Source: a virus
IMG/VR virus record: IMGVR_UViG_3300034283_001962
Coordinates: 54,408-118,407 of that record
Reading direction: 5' to 3' (one strand)
DNA: 64,000 bases
The first letter of the stretch is position 1. Each line of letters starts with the position of its first letter. The notes under the pieces were generated by a model. It was not told the DNA's origin and did not search any database. It saw nothing but the letters and a program-made list of their open reading frames with translations. Positions 9 through 8,153 of this stretch are shown here, piece by piece. The position numbers were made by a program, and so were the translations under genes.

Positions 9-490
9 CATTATGTCCTATTGGTGTACCATGTTTAACAATTACCAATACTGTAGATCATGCATATTGGCTTGTAAACTATTTAGAAACTATTATTTCA
101 GCTTCAGTATGGCAACCGATAACAAGTGCTACTATAGCATTTGAGTACCGTAAATTGCTTAATAAGTACGCTCTGGAGACTACTGGTACAACAGATGGTG
201 TACAATGGCAGGGTCATGATTTCTCAATGAGAGGTATGTCTTCTTTACAATCAGCATGTTCTAGTGGTGCAGGTCATTTACTTTCATTTACTGGAAGTGA
301 CACTGTACCTGCTATTTCATTTCTGGAAGAATTCTATAATGCTGATGTTGAGAAAGAATTGATAGGTGCTTCTATACCGGCAACAGAACACAGTGTAGCT
401 TGTATGAGTAGTAATATAAATCAATATTCACAAGTTGAAGAAGAATTTGATGAATCAATAAATCAATGGAAAATTATCCGTTATTTTTAG
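9..490 (+). CDS. nadV: Nicotinamide phosphoribosyltransferase (NAMPT/NadV), N-terminal piece (exon running in from upstream of the window)
   Basis: Frame 2 reads LCPIGVPCLTITNT...WLVNYLETIISASVWQPITSAT...HDFSMRG...GHLLSFTGSDT...SIPATEHSV, typical NAMPT motifs. In-frame TAA at 2-4; ends at TAG 488-490. Confidence 0.88.
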
Positions 491-1103
491 TTCTTGATAA
501 ATTATCTTTTGCCCAAAGAGGTCGTTGATTTGTATAATGAAAACATTTCTTTTGTTCTTCTGGATTAGTTAAATCAAAAGTAAAACACGGTTTAATATGG
601 TCTATATGCCATTTACCATAGTTTTCCCAAGACATATCTTTATCCATGAGCTTAGAAATATAATCCTTAAAAAAATTAGGAGTACATCCAATAAGATTAA
701 AGGTTTTATCAGCTTTTCTGTTTCCTTTTAAAGCATGATGAACTCTTCTTCTAAGATTTCTTTTAATTTTAAAAGTAGGATCATTTTTATGTAAACGTTC
801 CCAATTTTTCTTATACTCTTTAATTTTCAAATTGTTAATATTACGATAATCTTTATCATAATTAGACTTTTCAGATTTATGAGATTTATAATAAGTTCTT
901 TTAGCTAATCTGTGTTTTTCAATATTTTTTTGATAATGAGATTTGCGAGTTTTATTGAACAAATCAGTGTTATTCTCTCTGTAATTTTTATTAATTAAAT
1001 TAATACAAACTTTACAGATAGAATTATAACCTGATTTAAATCTTTTATTTTTAGGAAAATTATCTAATTCTTTTTCAATATGACATTTTGTACATAATTT
1101 CAT
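474..1103 (-). CDS. Free-standing HNH homing endonuclease with N-terminal Zn ribbon (probable start MKLCTKC at 1103)
   Basis: CxxC...CxxC N-terminus; WHIDHIKP...CFHYTNQRPLWAKDNL HNH motif; antisense between the two nadV pieces. Confidence 0.85.
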   Translation of the reverse strand: MKLCTKCHIEKELDNFPKNKRFKSGYNSICKVCINLINKNYRENNTDLFNKTRKSHYQKNIEKHRLAKRTYYKSHKSEKSNYDKDYRNINNLKIKEYKKNWERLHKNDPTFKIKRNLRRRVHHALKGNRKADKTFNLIGCTPNFFKDYISKLMDKDMSWENYGKWHIDHIKPCFTFDLTNPEEQKKCFHYTNQRPLWAKDNLSRTKNNG

Positions 1104-1107
1104 TGTA

Positions 1108-1139
1108 CAAAAATACACAATGTACACATAACTACCAAA
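1108..1139 (-). promoter_or_regulatory. Bacteroidota-type promoter (TTTG-N20-TAnnTTTG) for the HNH gene, likely leaderless
   Basis: Minus strand TTTG (1139-1136), 20 nt, TATTTTTG (1115-1108), ATG at 1103. Confidence 0.6.
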
Positions 1140-1147
1140 TTATTTTT

Positions 1148-2140
1148 ATGGTAAATTCAAAAAAAGTAAGAACTAGATCTATAACAAAAACAGAACAGTT
1201 ATTTAAAGGTCAAAAAGATATGTTATTAAGACATTTTCAATTATATCCATCAGGTATTCTTGCTGAAGTTATGGATACTTGGAATCTTTGGCAAGTTCTT
1301 ACAGAACTTCTTCCTGATCCTGAAATTAAAGCAGCAATTCTAGCTAGAGATGGTAAGTTAGTTATACGTCCTGATTCTGGTGATCCTGTTGATATTATTT
1401 GTGGTAAACCTATTCCAGAATTTAATACATTAGAAGAAGCAGAAAAACATTTTTATAAAAATGTTTTTGTAAATGGGAATATTCTTTTCAGGTTAAATGG
1501 AGAATTAAGACAAGTTATTACTCATTCTGGAAATACATTTATGAGTCAACTTCTTAAGCAATTTCCTCAAGATAAAGGTGTTATTGAATTGCTTTGGGAT
1601 GTATTTGGTGGTACAGTAAACGAACAAGGTTATAAAGTACTTGATCCACACATAGGAGCTATTTACGGAGATTCAATTACATTAGGTAGAGCTACTGAAA
1701 TCTGTGAACGTTTAAAAGCTAAAGGGTTTGCAAGTACTAATATTGTATTAGGTATAGGTTCATTTACCTACCAGTACAATACTCGTGATACTTTTGGGTT
1801 TGCTGTTAAAGCTACTTATGGTGAAGTACTTCAAGAAACAGGTGTGATATTAACAACATATCCTTCTAAAAAAGAGATGAAACCTGTAGGTCGTGAAATC
1901 TTTAAAAATCCTATTACTGATGATGGTACTAAGAAATCAGCCAAAGGGTTACTTCGTGTAGATCATGTTGTAAAAGTTGATTCTTTAGGTGATGTAGTAA
2001 GTCATGAGTATAAACTTGTTGACCAAGTATCTAAAGAAGAGGAAAAGCAAGGAGCATTAGAAACAGTATTTCTTAATGGAAAACTTGTTAAATTGCAAAG
2101 TTTATCAGAAATTCGCAAAAGATTATCTAAAAACTTATAA
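1148..2140 (+). CDS. nadV: NAMPT C-terminal piece (probable start MVNSKK at 1148)
   Basis: YPSGI...DTWNLW, LVIRPDSGDP, GAIYGDSIT, NIVLGIGSFTYQYNTRDT, KKSAKG motifs. Confidence 0.9.
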   Translation: MVNSKKVRTRSITKTEQLFKGQKDMLLRHFQLYPSGILAEVMDTWNLWQVLTELLPDPEIKAAILARDGKLVIRPDSGDPVDIICGKPIPEFNTLEEAEKHFYKNVFVNGNILFRLNGELRQVITHSGNTFMSQLLKQFPQDKGVIELLWDVFGGTVNEQGYKVLDPHIGAIYGDSITLGRATEICERLKAKGFASTNIVLGIGSFTYQYNTRDTFGFAVKATYGEVLQETGVILTTYPSKKEMKPVGREIFKNPITDDGTKKSAKGLLRVDHVVKVDSLGDVVSHEYKLVDQVSKEEEKQGALETVFLNGKLVKLQSLSEIRKRLSKNL

Positions 2141-2820: not shown

Positions 2821-4509
2821 ATGTTTAAAACTAAGCAAAGTAACTTAATCGAAAAGAAAGAAAGTACTACCATTAAAGGTAAAAAGAATGCATTTGTTGC
2901 AGCAGCTAATGAAAAAGCTGCAGTTACTATTAGTGGTAATGGTGCAATGAAGTACAGTACTACTGGTAATGATTTTGTTGATCAGTTTGGTAAATGCTCT
3001 AATTACAAAGCTCCTCGTAGTTACAATGAAGTAAGTAAAGATATGAGTACGTTATGGGCGATTGATCCACAACAAGCATTTGCTTTTGCATTGTATATTA
3101 GAATGATTACCAGAACAGTATCTTTAATCAATGGTGTAAAAACAACCAGTGTACAAAGAGGACAAGGTTTAAAGCACGAAGGAATCATGAGAATGATCTG
3201 GATTGCTGTAAATTATCCTAATGTATTCTGGAAAAATGCTCACTTGATTGTAGCAGTTGGTTCATGGAAAGATATCATTCAAATGCTCTCTTATGATCTT
3301 CAGTATAATGGTTGGAAAGACCGTTTAATGAACTGGAATTATTTTGGAGATATGATTTTAGCTGGTCTGGAAAATCCAGCTCAGTCTAATTTATTAAAGA
3401 AATACCTTCCTCAGATCAAAGCCAATTCTCGTTGTAAGACTATTGAGGCTCAAGCTGATAACCTAATTAGCAAGTGGATATGTTCACTACTTTTTGGTAG
3501 CAAAGAGAGTACATATAACTATAAGAAATACCGTCAATTAAAAACTAGCGGTACTGCACATGAATGGCAGAAGTTAATTTCAACAAAGAACTTAGTAAAT
3601 ATTAACTTTAGCACTATTCATGGTCGTGCATTAGCTATGATGGTATCTTCTAAGTTCTTGAAAAACAATGGTTTAGAAGCACGTTATGATCAATGGCTGA
3701 CTACACAACCTCTGGTGAAATATACAGGATTTGTGTATGAATTATGTGCAAAGATCAGTGCTATCAAAAAACCATATGAAGAACAAACAATCAATAAGCA
3801 GTTCATGTCTTTGGTTGAAACAGCTAAAAAAGGAGCTAAGAAAGAAACTTCATTGATTGTAGTACGTGATACAAGTGGCTCTATGAGTTCAAATGCAACA
3901 GGTACAAAAATATCATGTGGAGATGTAGCTAAATCTTTAGCTCTGTTCTTTAGTTACATGTTACCAGAAGGAGCATTTAACGATTCTTGGATCGAATTCC
4001 ATAGCACAGCTCAAATGCGTACTTGGAAAGGTAAAACTCCAGTTGAACGTTGGAAGAATGATCATTCTTCGTATGTAGGAGATACAAATTTTGAAGGAGT
4101 AATTGACCTAATTTGTAATATTAAAAGAAAAGGAATTAGTGAAGAAGAGTTTCCAACAGGAATTCTTTGTGTATCCGATGGTGAATTTAATCCTGCTCAA
4201 TTAGGTAAAACTAACGTTGAATCAGCTCGTATAAAGCTTAAAAAAGCTGGTTTCTCTGCTGAATATGTAAAGAATTTCCAGATAATTCTATGGAATTTAG
4301 GTAATTCTTACTACGGTAGAGGTAACTCTGGTAATAAGTTTGAAACTCATGGAGAAACTGAGAACGTGTTTTATTTCTCAGGTCTTGATGGATCAGTTAT
4401 AGCATTTCTTACAGGTTTAGAAGGTCAGAAAGCTGGTGTTCCTAAAACTGATGTAGAATTAATGCAAGCTGCATTAAATCAAGAGATCTTTGGAATGATC
4501 CAGATCTAA
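2821..4509 (+). CDS. Ro60/TROVE-like helical + vWA protein (DUF2828-like), putative RNA-binding
   Basis: N-terminal 'SGNGAMKYSTTGN', RGQG, GSWKD; vWA MIDAS motif 'VVRDTSGSM', 'GDTNF', 'ILCVSDGEF'. Confidence 0.75.
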   Translation: MFKTKQSNLIEKKESTTIKGKKNAFVAAANEKAAVTISGNGAMKYSTTGNDFVDQFGKCSNYKAPRSYNEVSKDMSTLWAIDPQQAFAFALYIRMITRTVSLINGVKTTSVQRGQGLKHEGIMRMIWIAVNYPNVFWKNAHLIVAVGSWKDIIQMLSYDLQYNGWKDRLMNWNYFGDMILAGLENPAQSNLLKKYLPQIKANSRCKTIEAQADNLISKWICSLLFGSKESTYNYKKYRQLKTSGTAHEWQKLISTKNLVNINFSTIHGRALAMMVSSKFLKNNGLEARYDQWLTTQPLVKYTGFVYELCAKISAIKKPYEEQTINKQFMSLVETAKKGAKKETSLIVVRDTSGSMSSNATGTKISCGDVAKSLALFFSYMLPEGAFNDSWIEFHSTAQMRTWKGKTPVERWKNDHSSYVGDTNFEGVIDLICNIKRKGISEEEFPTGILCVSDGEFNPAQLGKTNVESARIKLKKAGFSAEYVKNFQIILWNLGNSYYGRGNSGNKFETHGETENVFYFSGLDGSVIAFLTGLEGQKAGVPKTDVELMQAALNQEIFGMIQI

Positions 4510-4559: not shown

Positions 4560-4565
4560 TTTACA

Positions 4566-4680
4566 AGACTACAAACAGCAACACAAAAACAAAAATTCAA
4601 ACTTGAAACTTGAACAAGGAAGTTCGAATCTTCCACCGTTATACCGAGGTAGTTGGTCTGGAAAATCGGTAGTAGTCTGA
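4566..4680 (+). ncRNA. Y-RNA-like unit 1 (closing stem, ACAGCAA, UGA anticodon-like loop, T-arm)
   Basis: AGACTAC/GTAGTCT stem; ACAGCAA 4575-81; TTCAA-a-CTTGAAA-c-TTGAA; GGAAG-TTCGAAT-CTTCC. Confidence 0.7.
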
Positions 4681-4683
4681 ACA

Positions 4684-4744
4684 AAGTCGCTTACAGCAAC
4701 TAAAGCAATCCCTTTGTAATGGAAAAAAGCAAAAAGCGACTTGA
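4684..4744 (+). ncRNA. Y-RNA-like unit 2 (UGU anticodon-like loop)
   Basis: AAGTCGCTT/AAGCGACTT stem; ACAGCAA 4693-99; TCC-c-TTTGTAA-t-GGA. Confidence 0.65.
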
Positions 4745-4748
4745 AATA

Positions 4749-4864
4749 AGAACTCTAACAGCAATATATAATGATTGAGGATCAACTGGTCAGTGGTTCG
4801 AGTCCACTCATTAGAGAAATCTAATGTAGCTCAGCTGGTAGAGCAGTTTAAAAATGAGTTCTGA
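4749..4864 (+). ncRNA. YrlA-like unit 3 with circularly permuted tRNA domain (GAG anticodon-like loop)
   Basis: AGAACTC/GAGTTCT stem; ACAGCAA 4758-64; TGA-TTGAGGA-TCA; T-arm AGTGG-TTCGAGT-CCACT; acceptor-like stem CATTAGA-GAAA-TCTAATG; D-arm TA-GCTC-AGCTGGTA-GAGC. Confidence 0.8.
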
Positions 4865-4866
4865 AA

Positions 4867-4928
4867 AGGTTATCAACCGCAAACCATAATAATTTTCACT
4901 TTTACTGAAAAAAACAAATGGTAACCTG
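4867..4928 (+). ncRNA. Y-RNA-like unit 4 (UUU anticodon-like loop)
   Basis: AGGTTATC/GGTAACCT stem; ACCGCAA 4876-82; TTTTCA-CTTTTAC-TGAAAA. Confidence 0.65.
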
Positions 4929-4932
4929 TATA

Positions 4933-4992
4933 AGAATAGCAACAGCAACTAATAAAATTTCAATTGGTGAAAAAAAACAAATGCTATTCTGA
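4933..4992 (+). ncRNA. Y-RNA-like unit 5
   Basis: AGAATAGCA/TGCTATTCT stem; ACAGCAA 4942-48; TTTCA-ATTGG-TGAAA hairpin. Confidence 0.65.
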
Positions 4993-5370
4993 TTTTTTTA
5001 AATGGGGCAGACCGGATTTGACAGCGAAGGATCGGTAATTACACATGTAGGCAAAGCAAGAACGCCTTAAAACACTTGCAAAACAACAAACGACACTTCT
5101 AAAGAAGCACGTATTGCAGAAGGTGGAGCGGTTATCCGTTCAATCTTCAACAAGGTAGCAGTAGCTGCCTAAGCAATTGGGGGAGTTATCCCTTATTACC
5201 CAAAATAGCAATTGTTTTCTTTGTTTTCTCAAAACAAAGTGGTGGTAGCTCTAACCTTGGTTAGTTCCCTTTACGGTGCAGAAAGTAATTGAATGGGTAA
5301 ACCAGATAATGAAATTAGTACTAAACATGTGAAACGTTGTAATTATTGAAATTTTGTTTGGACGTGGGTT

Positions 5371-6034
5371 TAAAGTCGGACCCGCTATATAGGAATATAT
5401 AGGCAATAATTGGGAGAATTGCTGGAACGCTAAGGATTTATATCTATGCTAATCAGCAGCCGAGCTTCAAGGAAGTTTGAAGAAGGTTCAGAGACTAGGG
5501 ATACTACGGTAAGCCCATAGCACCCAACATCCAGAACGGATGATGATATAGTCCAACATCTATTGAAAAATAGAGAGTTAAAAGTTTGGAGATGTAGTAT
5601 ATTTACCCTATCTTCGTATTAAATAATACGTATGAACTGGGATTATATTACAGGTTTTTTTGATGCAGATGGTTCTATTAGTTTAGTTCGACAGAACAAA
5701 AATAGAGAACGTGCACCTCAAATTTCATTTCATAATAATGAACTGAATATTCTAGAAAATATTCAAAGTTTTATTAAAAAAGAATTGAATATTATAGGTC
5801 ATATTTCTAAGAAAAAGAAAGCTAAAGAACATCATGGTCAACAATATGATTTAAAGTATCACGGTTTTCCAAAATGTATTGTAATTGGAAGTAAATTAAG
5901 AAGTATTCATCAAAAGAAAATTAAAAGAATACTTTTAAGTGAACTTATTCATAAGATAACTCCTAGAAACGGTAAATATAGTGAACAAACACTTAAAACC
6001 AGATCAGAGTTAGAACTCAAATTTTTAAATTAAG
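5371..6034 (+). mobile_element. Group I intron in the tmRNA T-loop
   Basis: P1 GGGTT/GACCC with U-G wobble; P10 AGTCG/CGACT; core AATTGCTGGAA, AATCAGCAG, TCAGAGACTA, GATATAGTCC; terminal G at 6034. Confidence 0.9.
5632..6033 (+). CDS. Intron-encoded single-motif LAGLIDADG homing endonuclease
   Basis: YITGFFDADGSI motif; TAA stop sits directly before the intron's terminal G. Confidence 0.88.
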   Translation: MNWDYITGFFDADGSISLVRQNKNRERAPQISFHNNELNILENIQSFIKKELNIIGHISKKKKAKEHHGQQYDLKYHGFPKCIVIGSKLRSIHQKKIKRILLSELIHKITPRNGKYSEQTLKTRSELELKFLN

Positions 6035-6076
6035 CGACTCCCACCTGCTCCACTTTTTTTAATGCGTAAAAAAGTC

Positions 6077-6107
6077 GCCCGGTATTTTCTAATACTGGGC
6101 TTTTTTA
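6077..6107 (+). terminator. Intrinsic terminator after tmRNA, followed by TAAATTTG (6110-6117) promoter element for polB
   Basis: GCCCGGTATT-TTCT-AATACTGGGC-TTTTTT. Confidence 0.75.
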
Positions 6108-6122
6108 TTTAAATTTGTTCCT

Positions 6123-8153
6123 ATGTATAATGTTAGAATATATGACATTGAGACTCTGAAAGAGTATTTTCTGGTGTGTGTTTATGACCCTAATACAAAT
6201 GAATGGATAGATTTTTCTATTAACAAAAATGTTGATGAGGGGTATAAAATGATTAATTACTTTGAATCACTTAAATGTGATTTTGTAGTTGGTTATAACA
6301 ATGTAAACTTTGATGGTCAGATTATAGAATATGTCATCAGAAATTACCACAAATGGACAGATTTAAATAGGCTTGAAATATGTTACAAAATATGGCAATA
6401 TGCTCAAGATGTAATTGATGATATTAATAATGGTTTATTTGCTCCATTCAGAGAAGAACACTTAACAAACCGACAATTAGATCTTTTAAGAGTTCATCAC
6501 TTTGACAATGAAGCTAAGAGAACAAGTCTTAAGTGGCTTGAGTTCATGATGGATCTGGAAAATATTCAAGATATGCCAATAGCTCATGATGCAACTAATC
6601 TTACAGATAAAGATTTAGAAGAGGTTATTATTTATTGTAGAAATGACGTATTAGCTACACATAAGTTTTATAAATATACTATTGGTAATGTTGAAGATGA
6701 TTGGGTATTTGCTAATTTATATCAAGGAAAGAATAAAATTCAAGATAGATTAGACTTAATTGAAGAATTTACATTTCCTGCAATAGCTATTAACTGGTCA
6801 GATGTACGAATAGGTGATGAGATTAATTTAAAAGGGTACTCCTTACGTACAGGTAGAGATAGAAGTGAAGTATATAAGCTCAAGAAACAGCGCAAACCTA
6901 CCCGTAAAATCACATTTGGAGAATGTATTCCTGATTACGTACAGTTTGAAACTCCTGAGTTTAAAGCATTTTATAATAGTATTAAGAATGTCAGGCTTAC
7001 CTACATGGATAAACAAGAGTTTTTGTTTACTTATAATGGAACAAGATATAATATTGCTAAGGGAGGAATACACTCAACTGAAAAGAAAAGAGCAATTACT
7101 GTTACAGAAAATGAGATACTTAGAGATGCAGATGTAGGTTCACAATACCCTAATGCCATCAAAAAGCGTAAACTGTTTCCTTCTCACTTAGGAAAAGAAT
7201 GGTTAGTTAACTACGAAAATACCATTACAAAAAGGATTGAATATAAACATATTGGTACAGCTAAATATAAAGGTTTATCTGATATGCTTAAGCTTGCTCT
7301 AAATGGTGGTGGTTTTGGTAAAACTAATGAAAATACATCTTGGCAATATGATCCTGTAGTTACATTTTATTGTACTATTGGTAATCAGTTTGAGATTTTA
7401 ATGCTTATTGAAAGGCTTGAAATGGTTGGAATACATTGTGTATCTGCTAATACAGACGGTATTGTATGTAAATTTCATAAAGAACAGGAAGAAAAATACA
7501 ATGAAGTATGTAAATGGTGGGAAGAAACAGTAGGTAATTCTGATCAAGGTAAGCTTGAATATGCTGATTTTAAAGCAATTTATCAAACATCTGTTAATCA
7601 TTATATTGCTATTAAAGCTGATGGTTCAACTAAAAAGAAAGGTCAATTTGCTACTGATTTTGAATTTAACAAGAATAAATCAGGAAGAGTTATACCTTTA
7701 GCACTTGAAACATATTATAAAGATGGAACAGATCCTATAGAATATTTAAAGAATCATACTAATATTTTTGATTTCTGTATTGGTGTAAAAGGTAACAAAA
7801 AGTATTATTATCGTACTCAAAATTCTGATAATCATCAAACTCTAGATTACTTTGATAAAGTACTTAGATATATTATTACTACAAAAGGTGAAATATTATT
7901 TAAAGTAAAGAAAAAAGTATATGAATGGGATGGAGGTAATGATATTATGCATTGTGAAGCTCCAGATTCATTTACTGGTAAACAACCTTTAGTAACAATC
8001 TGTAATACAATTGATAAATCTAAAAGTATTAATGAATATAACATTGATTATGATTATTATTTAAAAGAAATAAATACTTTAATCGAACAGATTAATCGTC
8101 AAGGATCTAAGAAAAAAGGTTATAATAATCCTAATCAAATAACTTTATTTTAA
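6123..8153 (+). CDS. polB: Family B DNA polymerase (crAss-like)
   Basis: Exo motifs YDIET, GYNNVNFD, YCRND; pol motifs DADVGSQYPN, KLALNGGGFGK, SANTDG. Confidence 0.9.
   Translation: MYNVRIYDIETLKEYFLVCVYDPNTNEWIDFSINKNVDEGYKMINYFESLKCDFVVGYNNVNFDGQIIEYVIRNYHKWTDLNRLEICYKIWQYAQDVIDDINNGLFAPFREEHLTNRQLDLLRVHHFDNEAKRTSLKWLEFMMDLENIQDMPIAHDATNLTDKDLEEVIIYCRNDVLATHKFYKYTIGNVEDDWVFANLYQGKNKIQDRLDLIEEFTFPAIAINWSDVRIGDEINLKGYSLRTGRDRSEVYKLKKQRKPTRKITFGECIPDYVQFETPEFKAFYNSIKNVRLTYMDKQEFLFTYNGTRYNIAKGGIHSTEKKRAITVTENEILRDADVGSQYPNAIKKRKLFPSHLGKEWLVNYENTITKRIEYKHIGTAKYKGLSDMLKLALNGGGFGKTNENTSWQYDPVVTFYCTIGNQFEILMLIERLEMVGIHCVSANTDGIVCKFHKEQEEKYNEVCKWWEETVGNSDQGKLEYADFKAIYQTSVNHYIAIKADGSTKKKGQFATDFEFNKNKSGRVIPLALETYYKDGTDPIEYLKNHTNIFDFCIGVKGNKKYYYRTQNSDNHQTLDYFDKVLRYIITTKGEILFKVKKKVYEWDGGNDIMHCEAPDSFTGKQPLVTICNTIDKSKSINEYNIDYDYYLKEINTLIEQINRQGSKKKGYNNPNQITLF

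Follow-up and report, generated by a model that had tools for sequence, protein, structure and literature searches.

Introduction

The founding intron of a transfer-messenger RNA (tmRNA) gene is said to lie at T-loop position 7 in Clostridium botulinum and was reportedly described by Williams in 2002. Such genes are now catalogued on a large scale: the accessible part of a recent survey (PMC11915505, NAR Genom Bioinform 2025) gives 883 unique intron-form tmRNAs from 21 phyla, all interrupted in the T-loop at one of four subsites (2, 3, 7 and 8), with LAGLIDADG genes in 36 of the 883, located either in P7.1 or after P9. The class Bacteroidia is the sole source that it gives for position 3; RefSeq viruses were also searched, and no phage intron form is mentioned in that part of the text. 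Phages are known to carry tmRNA genes (ssrA) of their own, which have been found by ARAGORN in 402 of 18,146 genomes and are also present in huge phages, and the roles proposed for them are to keep the hijacked translation machinery running or to tag proteins (PMC9004378, PMC7162821). Here we describe a 64-kb stretch of DNA (64,000 nucleotides (nt), hereafter the window), the second half of the virus record IMGVR_UViG_3300034283_001962 (G000:C1:54408-118407), in which the tmRNA gene of a phage is split in its T-loop by a group I intron that carries a gene for a LAGLIDADG nuclease.

By the text of PMC11915505, from which the subsite numbering is inferred, the insertion site in the window (UU|CGACU) is subsite 3. 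As in the Bacteroidia position-3 tmRNAs of that survey, the intron follows the second U of the loop and has G as its last nucleotide, and P1 contains a pair of the U at -1 with a G; as in some of those tmRNAs, the LAGLIDADG gene lies after P9. In five Bacteroidota loci that we collected (L049 and L054-L057), the site used in the window is occupied by a homologous intron with a homologous nuclease. The window gene nevertheless differs from the Bacteroidia position-3 genes in being located on a phage and in having a predicted tag of 26 amino acids (aa), as against 9 aa in these five cellular loci. From the founding position-7 introns it differs in subsite, those being mostly from Bacillota and most of them without a nuclease gene, as the small share of LAGLIDADG carriers in PMC11915505 indicates. 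The phage tmRNA surveys (PMC9004378, PMC7162821) are ARAGORN-based and treat one-piece and two-piece forms only, the word 'intron' being absent from their accessible text, whereas the form in the window is intron-split. An earlier note on this DNA, made from its letters alone, had held that T-loop introns are rare and reported in only a few tmRNAs, which the 883 forms of PMC11915505 contradict. Genes of this design are on record from bacteria, and what appears to be unreported is only the phage setting, with the traffic between phages and Bacteroidota that it implies. Full-text searches returned no paper on an intron-form phage tmRNA, and the word 'phage' is absent from the accessible part of the PMC11915505 supplement, an earlier listing in a database being possible.

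The tmRNA gene and its two exons

The tmRNA gene extends over positions 5004-6052 of the window on the forward strand, on which the exons, the intron and the parts of the intron also lie, and its T-loop is split by 664 nt at 5371-6034. ARAGORN reported neither a transfer RNA (tRNA) nor a tmRNA in the raw 64-kb window; after 5371-6034 had been removed in silico, it reported a tmRNA of 386 nt (5004-5370 joined to 6035-6053) with the tag DTSKEARIAEGGAVIRSIFNKVAVAA. The split of the T-loop and its coordinates, which the earlier note had claimed, are confirmed throughout. Exon 1 (5004-5370) is placed by ARAGORN on the spliced form, by the Rfam tmRNA model RF00023 and by end-to-end alignment with the intronless viral tmRNAs of loci L093, L094, L104 and L114. 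It carries GGGGCAG (5004-5010) as the 5′ acceptor strand, then the body of the tmRNA, and lastly the T-arm's 5′ half, made up of stem positions 5364-5368 and loop nucleotides 1-2 (5369-5370); its final letters, up to 5370, are GTGGGTT. Exon 2 (6035-6052), placed by ARAGORN on the spliced form and by comparison of acceptor stems, begins CGACTCCCACCTGCTCCA at 6035 and supplies loop nucleotides 3-7 (CGACU, 6035-6039), the 3′ strand of the T-stem (6040-6044), the 3′ acceptor strand CUGCUCC (6045-6051) and the discriminator A at 6052. On ligation the two exons give a T-stem of 5 base pairs (bp) and a 7-nt T-loop, UUCGACU. The alanine identity elements are intact, namely the 7-bp acceptor stem GGGGCAG/CUGCUCC, its G3.U70 pair and the discriminator A6052.

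The tag reading frame predicted by ARAGORN, 26 codons followed by TAA, is located at 5092-5172, and the predicted tag of 26 residues ends in VAVAA. The frame is kept, with one gap of 3 nt, in the alignment with the tags of the L093 type, VKSQSERVEEGASIIAMAFASELALAA. RF00023 aligns with 5011-5367, that is with the 5′ 357 nt of the gene, and stops at the break in the T-arm; its score is 29.2 bits where the gathering score is 47, a shortfall due to the absence of the 3′ tRNA-like part at that place.

Splice sites and ribozyme fold

The intron of 664 nt (5371-6034), located after the second U of the T-loop, begins TAAAGTCGGACCC at 5371 and ends in AAATTAAG at 6034. Its limits are supported by Rfam, by ARAGORN after removal of the stretch, by comparison within the family described below and by a gap of 664 columns against intronless relatives. 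The Rfam group I model RF00028 matches 5360-5575 over its full length (model positions 1-253) with 91.9 bits against a gathering score of 50 (E 2.9e-22), so that the group I assignment of the earlier note stands on an independent model as well; the P1 and P10 pairings and the terminal G that it had read from the letters are likewise all present. P1 (5364-5385) is formed over 7 bp by the exon sequence GUGGGUU (5364-5370) and GACCCGC (5379-5385), with the pair U5370.G5379 at the 5′ splice site. Its loop (5371-5378) contains AGUCG (5374-5378), which pairs over 5 bp with CGACU (6035-6039) at the start of exon 2 to give P10; 16 of 1000 shuffles of the P1 loop match this pairing. The terminal (omega) G, seen in the sequence and in the ARAGORN splice form, is at 6034.

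P2 (5385-5402) was found by RNAalifold as a hairpin of 5385-5391 with 5396-5402 closed by a GGAA loop, and all 7 of its pairs show compensatory changes. The catalytic core (5410-5573) was drawn by mapping the Rfam alignment and the consensus structure onto the window. In it P3 pairs 5410-5414 with 5523-5527, P4 5420-5425 with 5453-5458, P5 5429-5430 with 5448-5449, and P6 5459-5461 with 5485-5487 and 5465-5470 with 5477-5482. P7 (5493-5497/5549-5553) was read by eye in the window, as was P9 (5560-5564/5569-5573), which has a GAAA loop; a P7.1-like hairpin (5498-5504/5509-5516) and P8 (5528-5532/5538-5542) complete the fold. The 3′ splice site is thus about 460 nt past P9. A closing helix that would loop out the open reading frame (ORF), 5578-5589 with 6017-6028, was considered and rejected, its RNAduplex energy being no better than that of shuffles (112 of 200 as good); the corresponding candidate was also no better than shuffles in 8 relatives.

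In phage T4, self-splicing group I introns are found in protein-coding genes, their enzymes being of the GIY-YIG or HNH type, and in sunY/nrdD the 3′ splice site is far from the core. The window resembles them in that a phage gene is split by a group I intron with a nuclease ORF between the core and the 3′ splice site, and differs from them in that the split gene is one for a stable RNA and the enzyme is of the LAGLIDADG type.

A family of introns at the same nucleotide

A profile search with the nuclease collected 66 loci, 43 from viral records and 23 from genomes, of which the best 14 genome loci are all Bacteroidota by record title. Using blastn, the intron core of the window matched 31 of these 66 nuclease loci. 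Split T-arms were also scanned for, and with ARAGORN confirmation on the sequences spliced in silico this gave 26 loci besides the window, 16 of them at the subsite of the window. Four extra viral loci (L005, L022, L028 and L031) have a T-arm split in the same way and a complete acceptor stem, and the ARAGORN call failed for them after splicing. The set used for comparison at position 3 consists of 21 rows, namely the window, 15 viral loci and the five Bacteroidota loci mentioned above. It may be noted that within it L006 and L007 have the same sequence and that the nucleases of L026 and L027 are identical.

All 21 rows have the intron after the second T-loop U, the G3.U70 pair, the discriminator A and a 7-bp acceptor stem that spans the intron. 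This stem is present in 11 different compensating versions. Because the two exons covary as one acceptor stem in every locus of the set, the ligated tmRNA is what selection sees. A terminal G is also present in all 21 introns, being a requirement of the search. P1 has 5-7 bp in each row and covaries with the exon (GGGUU/GACCC, GAGUU/GACUC). The cut-off of RF00023 is passed by all five cellular loci and by none of the 15 viral ones.

For the ribozyme we aligned the 19 distinct intron cores. RNAalifold recovers P1-P6, the P7.1-type hairpin, P8 and P9 from this alignment, to which P7 was added as a pseudoknot. Standard pairs occupy 98.4% of the 1060 pair cells, as compared with 80.7% in shuffles (0 of 500 as high) and 30-40% when the partners are slid by 1-3 columns. 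Compensatory changes are seen in 33 of 56 pairs versus 7-10 when slid, and the margin over the slid controls is inflated because the consensus structure was derived from the same alignment. P7 never varies and is therefore uninformative. Taken as comparative evidence, these values argue that the ribozyme is under selection.

On dividing the rows strandwise, the nuclease gene is on the strand of the intron in 10 of 21 cases, the window included, and in 9 of these 10 its stop codon is 0-6 nt from the intron end, the exception being L055, in which the ORF is shortened. The remaining 11 rows are all viral, and in them the gene, again at that place after P9, runs on the opposite strand, which argues against a general maturase role. 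A tree of the nucleases (50 rows, quick IQ-TREE run with the Shimodaira-Hasegawa-like approximate likelihood ratio test, SH-aLRT, only) shows viral and cellular rows interleaved, with 5 label changes, at least 2 of which are forced by well-supported branches. For example, L049 (Prolixibacteraceae) groups with the viral L006 and L007, and the viral L021 with two Flavobacteriaceae loci. The nuclease of the window pairs with that of the viral locus L005, at 56% identity.

The same nuclease family and similar cores were also observed at other subsites, in L012 and L021 (subsite 8), in L058 and L059 (subsite 7) and, by eye, in L008 and L030, these loci being viral and from Flavobacteriaceae. Since members occur at subsites 7 or 8 too, the nuclease family is not restricted to a single insertion point. 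Short 'introns' of 194-232 nt in L014, L017, L048, L050, L052 and L053, with the nuclease gene outside, were not counted in the position-3 family. Four of them (L048, L050, L052 and L053, from Flavobacteriales/Vicingaceae) show a candidate intron of about 210-230 nt at subsite 7 followed by the tmRNA 3′ exon and then by the nuclease gene, and in L050 the scan gives a candidate second copy of the 3′ exon beyond that gene.

The LAGLIDADG nuclease

The nuclease gene (5632-6033) starts 58 nt past P9 and encodes a single-motif LAGLIDADG protein of 133 aa. Its stop codon at 6031-6033 ends 1 nt before the intron does, so that a homing endonuclease ORF at the 3′ end, abutting the terminal G, is where the earlier note had seen it; the LAGLIDADG identity that the note had assigned was recovered in Pfam, in a profile search of the Protein Data Bank (PDB) and in a structural model. 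In Pfam the protein matches LAGLIDADG_3 (PF14528) at 31.6 bits (cut-off 22.5, E 2e-7) and LAGLIDADG_1 (PF00961) at 31.3 bits (cut-off 23.1, E 4.1e-7). The motif GFFDADGS occupies residues 8-15, of which D11, D13, G14 and S15 are invariant in all 57 sequences compared; we take D13 to be the counterpart of the catalytic Asp of I-CreI. Homologues number 102 at E ≤ 0.001 and are mostly 130-140 aa long. A profile built from 57 homologues gave only LAGLIDADG enzymes or maturases among the PDB matches listed. The AlphaFold2 (AF2) model has a predicted local distance difference test (pLDDT) value of 95.3, and its best Foldseek matches, among those listed, are LAGLIDADG enzymes. Whole-chain matches were obtained with the homodimeric I-TnaI (template modelling scores 0.68/0.63), I-Vdi141I, I-MsoI and I-CreI, and also with halves of I-OnuI. 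A label of 'HNH endonuclease' assigned through PHROGs (phrog_5046) is contradicted by this LAGLIDADG fold.

In the AF2 and dimer models the fold is alpha-beta-beta-alpha-beta-beta-alpha with dimerisation via the motif helix. The homodimer model has an ipSAE of 0.64, versus 0.00 for the best of 3 controls, with the interface formed through residues 4-14 (the LAGLIDADG helix), a contact agreement between runs of at least 94% and a partner pLDDT of at least 86. For calibration, among proteins with solved structures, 20 of 30 one-chain pairs and 1 of 23 single chains attain this mark; the pass may stem from likeness to LAGLIDADG dimers already solved. Thus in being single-motif, in its whole-chain fold, in its predicted dimer through the motif helix and in being encoded in a group I intron, the nuclease is like I-CreI, I-MsoI, I-TnaI and I-Vdi141I, and the likeness extends to the target, for which a pseudo-palindrome would be expected. 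Unlike these enzymes it is shorter, at 133 aa, with 14-20% identity to them in structural alignments, and its function is a predicted one.

Directly before the ATG of the nuclease gene, a perfect 6-bp hairpin (CGUAUU-AAAU-AAUACG, 5616-5631) was noticed by eye, and it might curb how much nuclease is translated from precursor RNA.

Intron-free alleles and tag lineages

Viral contigs were scanned with a degenerate motif of the tmRNA 5′ end, which gave at least 119 matches, and 80 viral loci were taken from these. Among the matches listed, an uninterrupted tmRNA is present at the motif in 42 of the 80 loci. In three more of the 80 the P7 motif of the intron is found downstream, two of these being contigs already in the set. 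The closest tag relatives of the window among the matches listed are L093, L094, L104 and L114 (tag VKSQSERVEEGASIIAMAFASELALAA), which are uninterrupted and align with the window exons at 58.6% identity over 377 columns, with the tag in frame and a single gap of 664 columns. The 17-nt T-arm of the window is itself present without interruption in L081, L113 and L116. As intronless viral tmRNAs with the same T-arm exist, targets for homing are available. Also, one tag, ANAQIEANMNKVFSLLGEEVAVAA, is shared by L027, which has the intron, and by L081 and L119, which lack it.

Tags of more than 10 aa were found in 30 of the 42 uninterrupted viral tmRNAs and tags of 10 aa or less in 12, counting from ARAGORN tag starts among the matches listed. 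Predicted tags of the viral tmRNAs in L074-L153 and in the position-3 set are mostly 17-33 aa long with a recurring motif ANMNKVFSL...AA. Cellular Bacteroidota loci have 9-aa tags such as GENNYALAA and GESNYAMAA.

Other routes to an intronless allele gave null results. The exact 23-nt 5′ end of the tmRNA had 0 matches in viral contigs. Neither ARAGORN nor Rfam found a tmRNA, a tRNA or an intron in L002 and L003, which are relatives of the window through the neighbouring DNA polymerase gene, and hence synteny yielded no intronless allele. With blastn, positions 4700-6200 matched 14 records of GenBank phages, all through the intron core only and none through a tmRNA. Within the phage's own genome, no site resembles the 22-nt ligated junction with 6 mismatches or fewer; four T-arm-like sites in the tRNA region come closest, with 7 mismatches.

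Proposed mechanism and alternative explanations

From the anatomy of the gene, the family-wide covariation of exons and ribozyme, the modelled protein fold and the occurrence of alleles with and without the intron, we consider it highly probable that the window contains a phage one-piece tmRNA (ssrA) gene that has been invaded by a mobile group I intron. Splicing and cleavage are what we infer from the comparative data, which fit both, and charging and the nuclease target are to be read in the same conditional sense. A precursor of about 1.05 kb would be transcribed, in which the intron would fold as a P1-P9 ribozyme with a P7.1-type insert. The 5′ splice site would be set by U5370.G5379 in P1, and the 3′ splice site by P10 and the terminal G6034. 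Self-excision would restore the 7-nt T-loop and the 5-bp T-stem, after which host enzymes would trim the ends and add CCA. The 386-nt tmRNA could then be charged with alanine by the alanyl-tRNA synthetase (AlaRS) of the host through G3.U70 and the discriminator A. Host SmpB is assumed for the next step, as SmpB (PF01668) was not found in the 118-kb phage record by a search that recovered it in 10 control genomes; with it the phage tmRNA would release ribosomes stalled during infection and add the 26-residue tag ending in VAVAA. A homodimer of the 133-aa protein would cut intronless ssrA at or close to the T-arm, a natural pseudo-palindrome by virtue of its stem, and repair would copy the intron in. 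By this route the intron would spread among co-infecting phages and between the genes of phages and their Bacteroidota hosts.

Several results weigh against this reading. The tmRNA of the window scores no higher than 29.2 bits with RF00023, its resume codon GAC and its tag length come solely from ARAGORN prediction, and the gene lacks an encoded CCA, the bases after A6052 being CTT (CCA is encoded in just 2 of the 21 family rows). Even after splicing, ARAGORN makes no call in 4 of the 21 rows. The cut-off of RF00028 is passed by 13 of the 20 related loci, with 7 below it, and P10 has 5 bp or more in 10 of the 21 rows and only 2-3 bp in the other 11. To these may be added the inflated margin over the slid controls and the finding of no helix that returns the distant 3′ splice site to the core.

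The last of these points lends some weight to an explanation in which the intron is spliced, with the LAGLIDADG protein acting mainly as a maturase or being a nuclease-dead passenger, and the element is fixed in the phage and no longer mobile. A 3′ splice site about 460 nt from the core without a closing helix makes a protein helper conceivable, the mRNA maturase 2ab5 is among the best PDB profile matches, and no intronless DNA allele of the window's phage was seen in the contigs of four DNA runs. However, in the 11 rows with an antisense nuclease gene the protein could not be translated from the intron RNA, yet their core is equally conserved, and the residues of the metal-binding motif are invariant in 57 of 57 sequences. 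Alleles with and without the intron also coexist in one tag lineage (L027 versus L081 and L119), and the interleaving of viral and cellular nucleases in the tree points to recent mobility. We therefore regard the maturase or passenger explanation as unlikely.

It is still less probable, to a degree that we would call very low, that the split gene is a decaying relic, the tmRNA and intron having been captured from a Bacteroidota host and being non-functional in the phage. The low RF00023 score against its gathering score of 47, the unencoded CCA, the lack of SmpB in the phage and the presence of the same intron and nuclease in Bacteroidota chromosomes would suit such an origin. All the defining parts are nevertheless intact, that is the acceptor stem, G3.U70, the discriminator A, the spliced T-arm and an open tag frame ending in VAVAA. 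Moreover, the tag is homologous to and in frame with those of intronless viral tmRNAs that share just 58.6% DNA identity with the window, which indicates purifying selection. The long-tag lineages of the viruses (more than 10 aa in 30 of the 42, among the matches listed) are distinct from the 9-aa host tags, and the gene is therefore not a fresh capture.

As for the sample evidence, contigs of three separate lake-water DNA runs, out of four runs compared, bridge the boundary of exon 1 and intron (5370/5371), so that this junction is not an artefact of one assembly. No contig piece bridging 6034/6035 is present among those listed for the four runs, and no RNA dataset is among the runs listed as containing the stretch 4900-6150. 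An assembly chimera of a tmRNA gene with an unrelated intron, for which the metagenomic origin of the record and the unbridged 6034/6035 could be cited, is scarcely credible given the three runs that bridge 5370/5371, the presence in three runs of a fraction of 0.99-1.00 of the sampled words of 4900-6150 (these runs being possibly the source samples) and the same architecture in twenty other loci from separate records.

The phage genome and neighbouring features

The virus record is a 118,407-bp genome from a lake, with a CheckV completeness of 100%. By PHROGs the phage has genes for DNA polymerase, ribonucleotide reductase, a UvsX-like recombinase, primase and helicase. Outside the window, in the other half of the genome (G000:C1:37092-41144), lie 23 tRNA genes; these span 19 amino acids, with none for alanine, the amino acid with which tmRNA is charged, a split tRNA-Ala not having been searched for.

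Downstream of the tmRNA gene, 25 nt past its end, there is, on the forward strand, a terminator-like hairpin (10 bp with 5 G-C, 6077-6100) followed by a T run, the site as a whole being 6077-6110. On its own this site is weak, because one was found as against 0.9 expected in shuffles.

Upstream, positions 4768-4879 on the forward strand match a Y RNA-like family (YrlA, RF02553) at 39.5 bits, below the gathering score of 69, with a T-arm, a hairpin and a D-arm in the YrlA order; the folding z-score of the stretch is -1.0. It is 260 nt downstream of an ORF (2821-4509, also forward) for a protein of 562 aa, which matches phrog_850 'RNA-binding protein' (E 1.5e-31) and Pfam DUF7788/DUF2828, shows by eye a DxSxS motif like that of von Willebrand factor A (vWA) domains and has no match among PDB sequences. 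By these sequence features, a Ro60-like protein of the phage and its Y RNA may be encoded as a pair beside the tmRNA gene. The same non-coding stretch, which contains the YrlA-like RNA and the tmRNA gene, has three copies, 73-75% alike, of a 26-28-nt motif (TAyAAGAA...AACAGCAAy) at 4562-4589, 4746-4771 and 4929-4956, the last stopping 48 nt short of the tmRNA 5′ end. For AACAGCAAY, 6 occurrences were counted in the window where 1.7 would be expected. The repeated motif may be a phage promoter or a processing signal.

A nicotinamide phosphoribosyltransferase gene (G000:C1:53241-56547) was observed in three pieces, L072 533-877, window 155-490 and window 1088-2140, which correspond to NAMPT_N, to positions 2-72 and to positions 62-201 of the NAPRTase profile, respectively. 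The two inserts between them contain ORFs with HNH-like Cys/His motifs (seen by eye, with no Pfam match) at L072 972-1586 on the forward strand and at window 474-1127 on the reverse strand, and the first insert gives weak Rfam group I matches of 31.8 and 19.8 bits, both below the cut-off. The whole phage genome has three group I matches only. The phage probably has further introns.

The DNA polymerase of L002 (170-3101) and L003 (4001-6932) is homologous to window 6123-8153 at 55% identity and takes up 2932 nt for 673 matched residues. This surplus of about 900 nt suggests an intron, intein or other insert that is not in the gene of the window; Rfam returned nothing at E ≤ 0.01 on these two loci.

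Implications

As the design is already catalogued in bacteria, the gain from the window alone is modest. Its meaning lies rather with the surveys and with the family. Phage ssrA is under-counted and its intron-split class is unannotated, because the surveys use ARAGORN, which is blind to intron-split genes. The same intron-nuclease family is present at the same ssrA nucleotide in many uncultured phages and in Bacteroidota chromosomes, with intron-free alleles alongside, which offers a natural system for studying, in a small RNA gene of very high conservation, intron homing among viruses in competition and between a virus and its host. The findings further draw attention to little-studied phage tmRNAs with long tags that rely on host SmpB.

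More tentatively, and as a possibility to which we give clearly less credence than to an invaded phage gene as such, ssrA may be a shared homing site for one intron-nuclease family among phages and their Bacteroidota hosts. The nuclease would then cut the intronless ssrA of co-infecting phages, and possibly that of the host, and the phage tmRNAs would form a separate long-tag lineage (17-33 versus 9 aa). If this is true, a phage carrying the intron would gain an edge in mixed infections through interference competition, the host's own ribosome-rescue gene would be converted or damaged, and the longer phage tag may do more than mark proteins for degradation.

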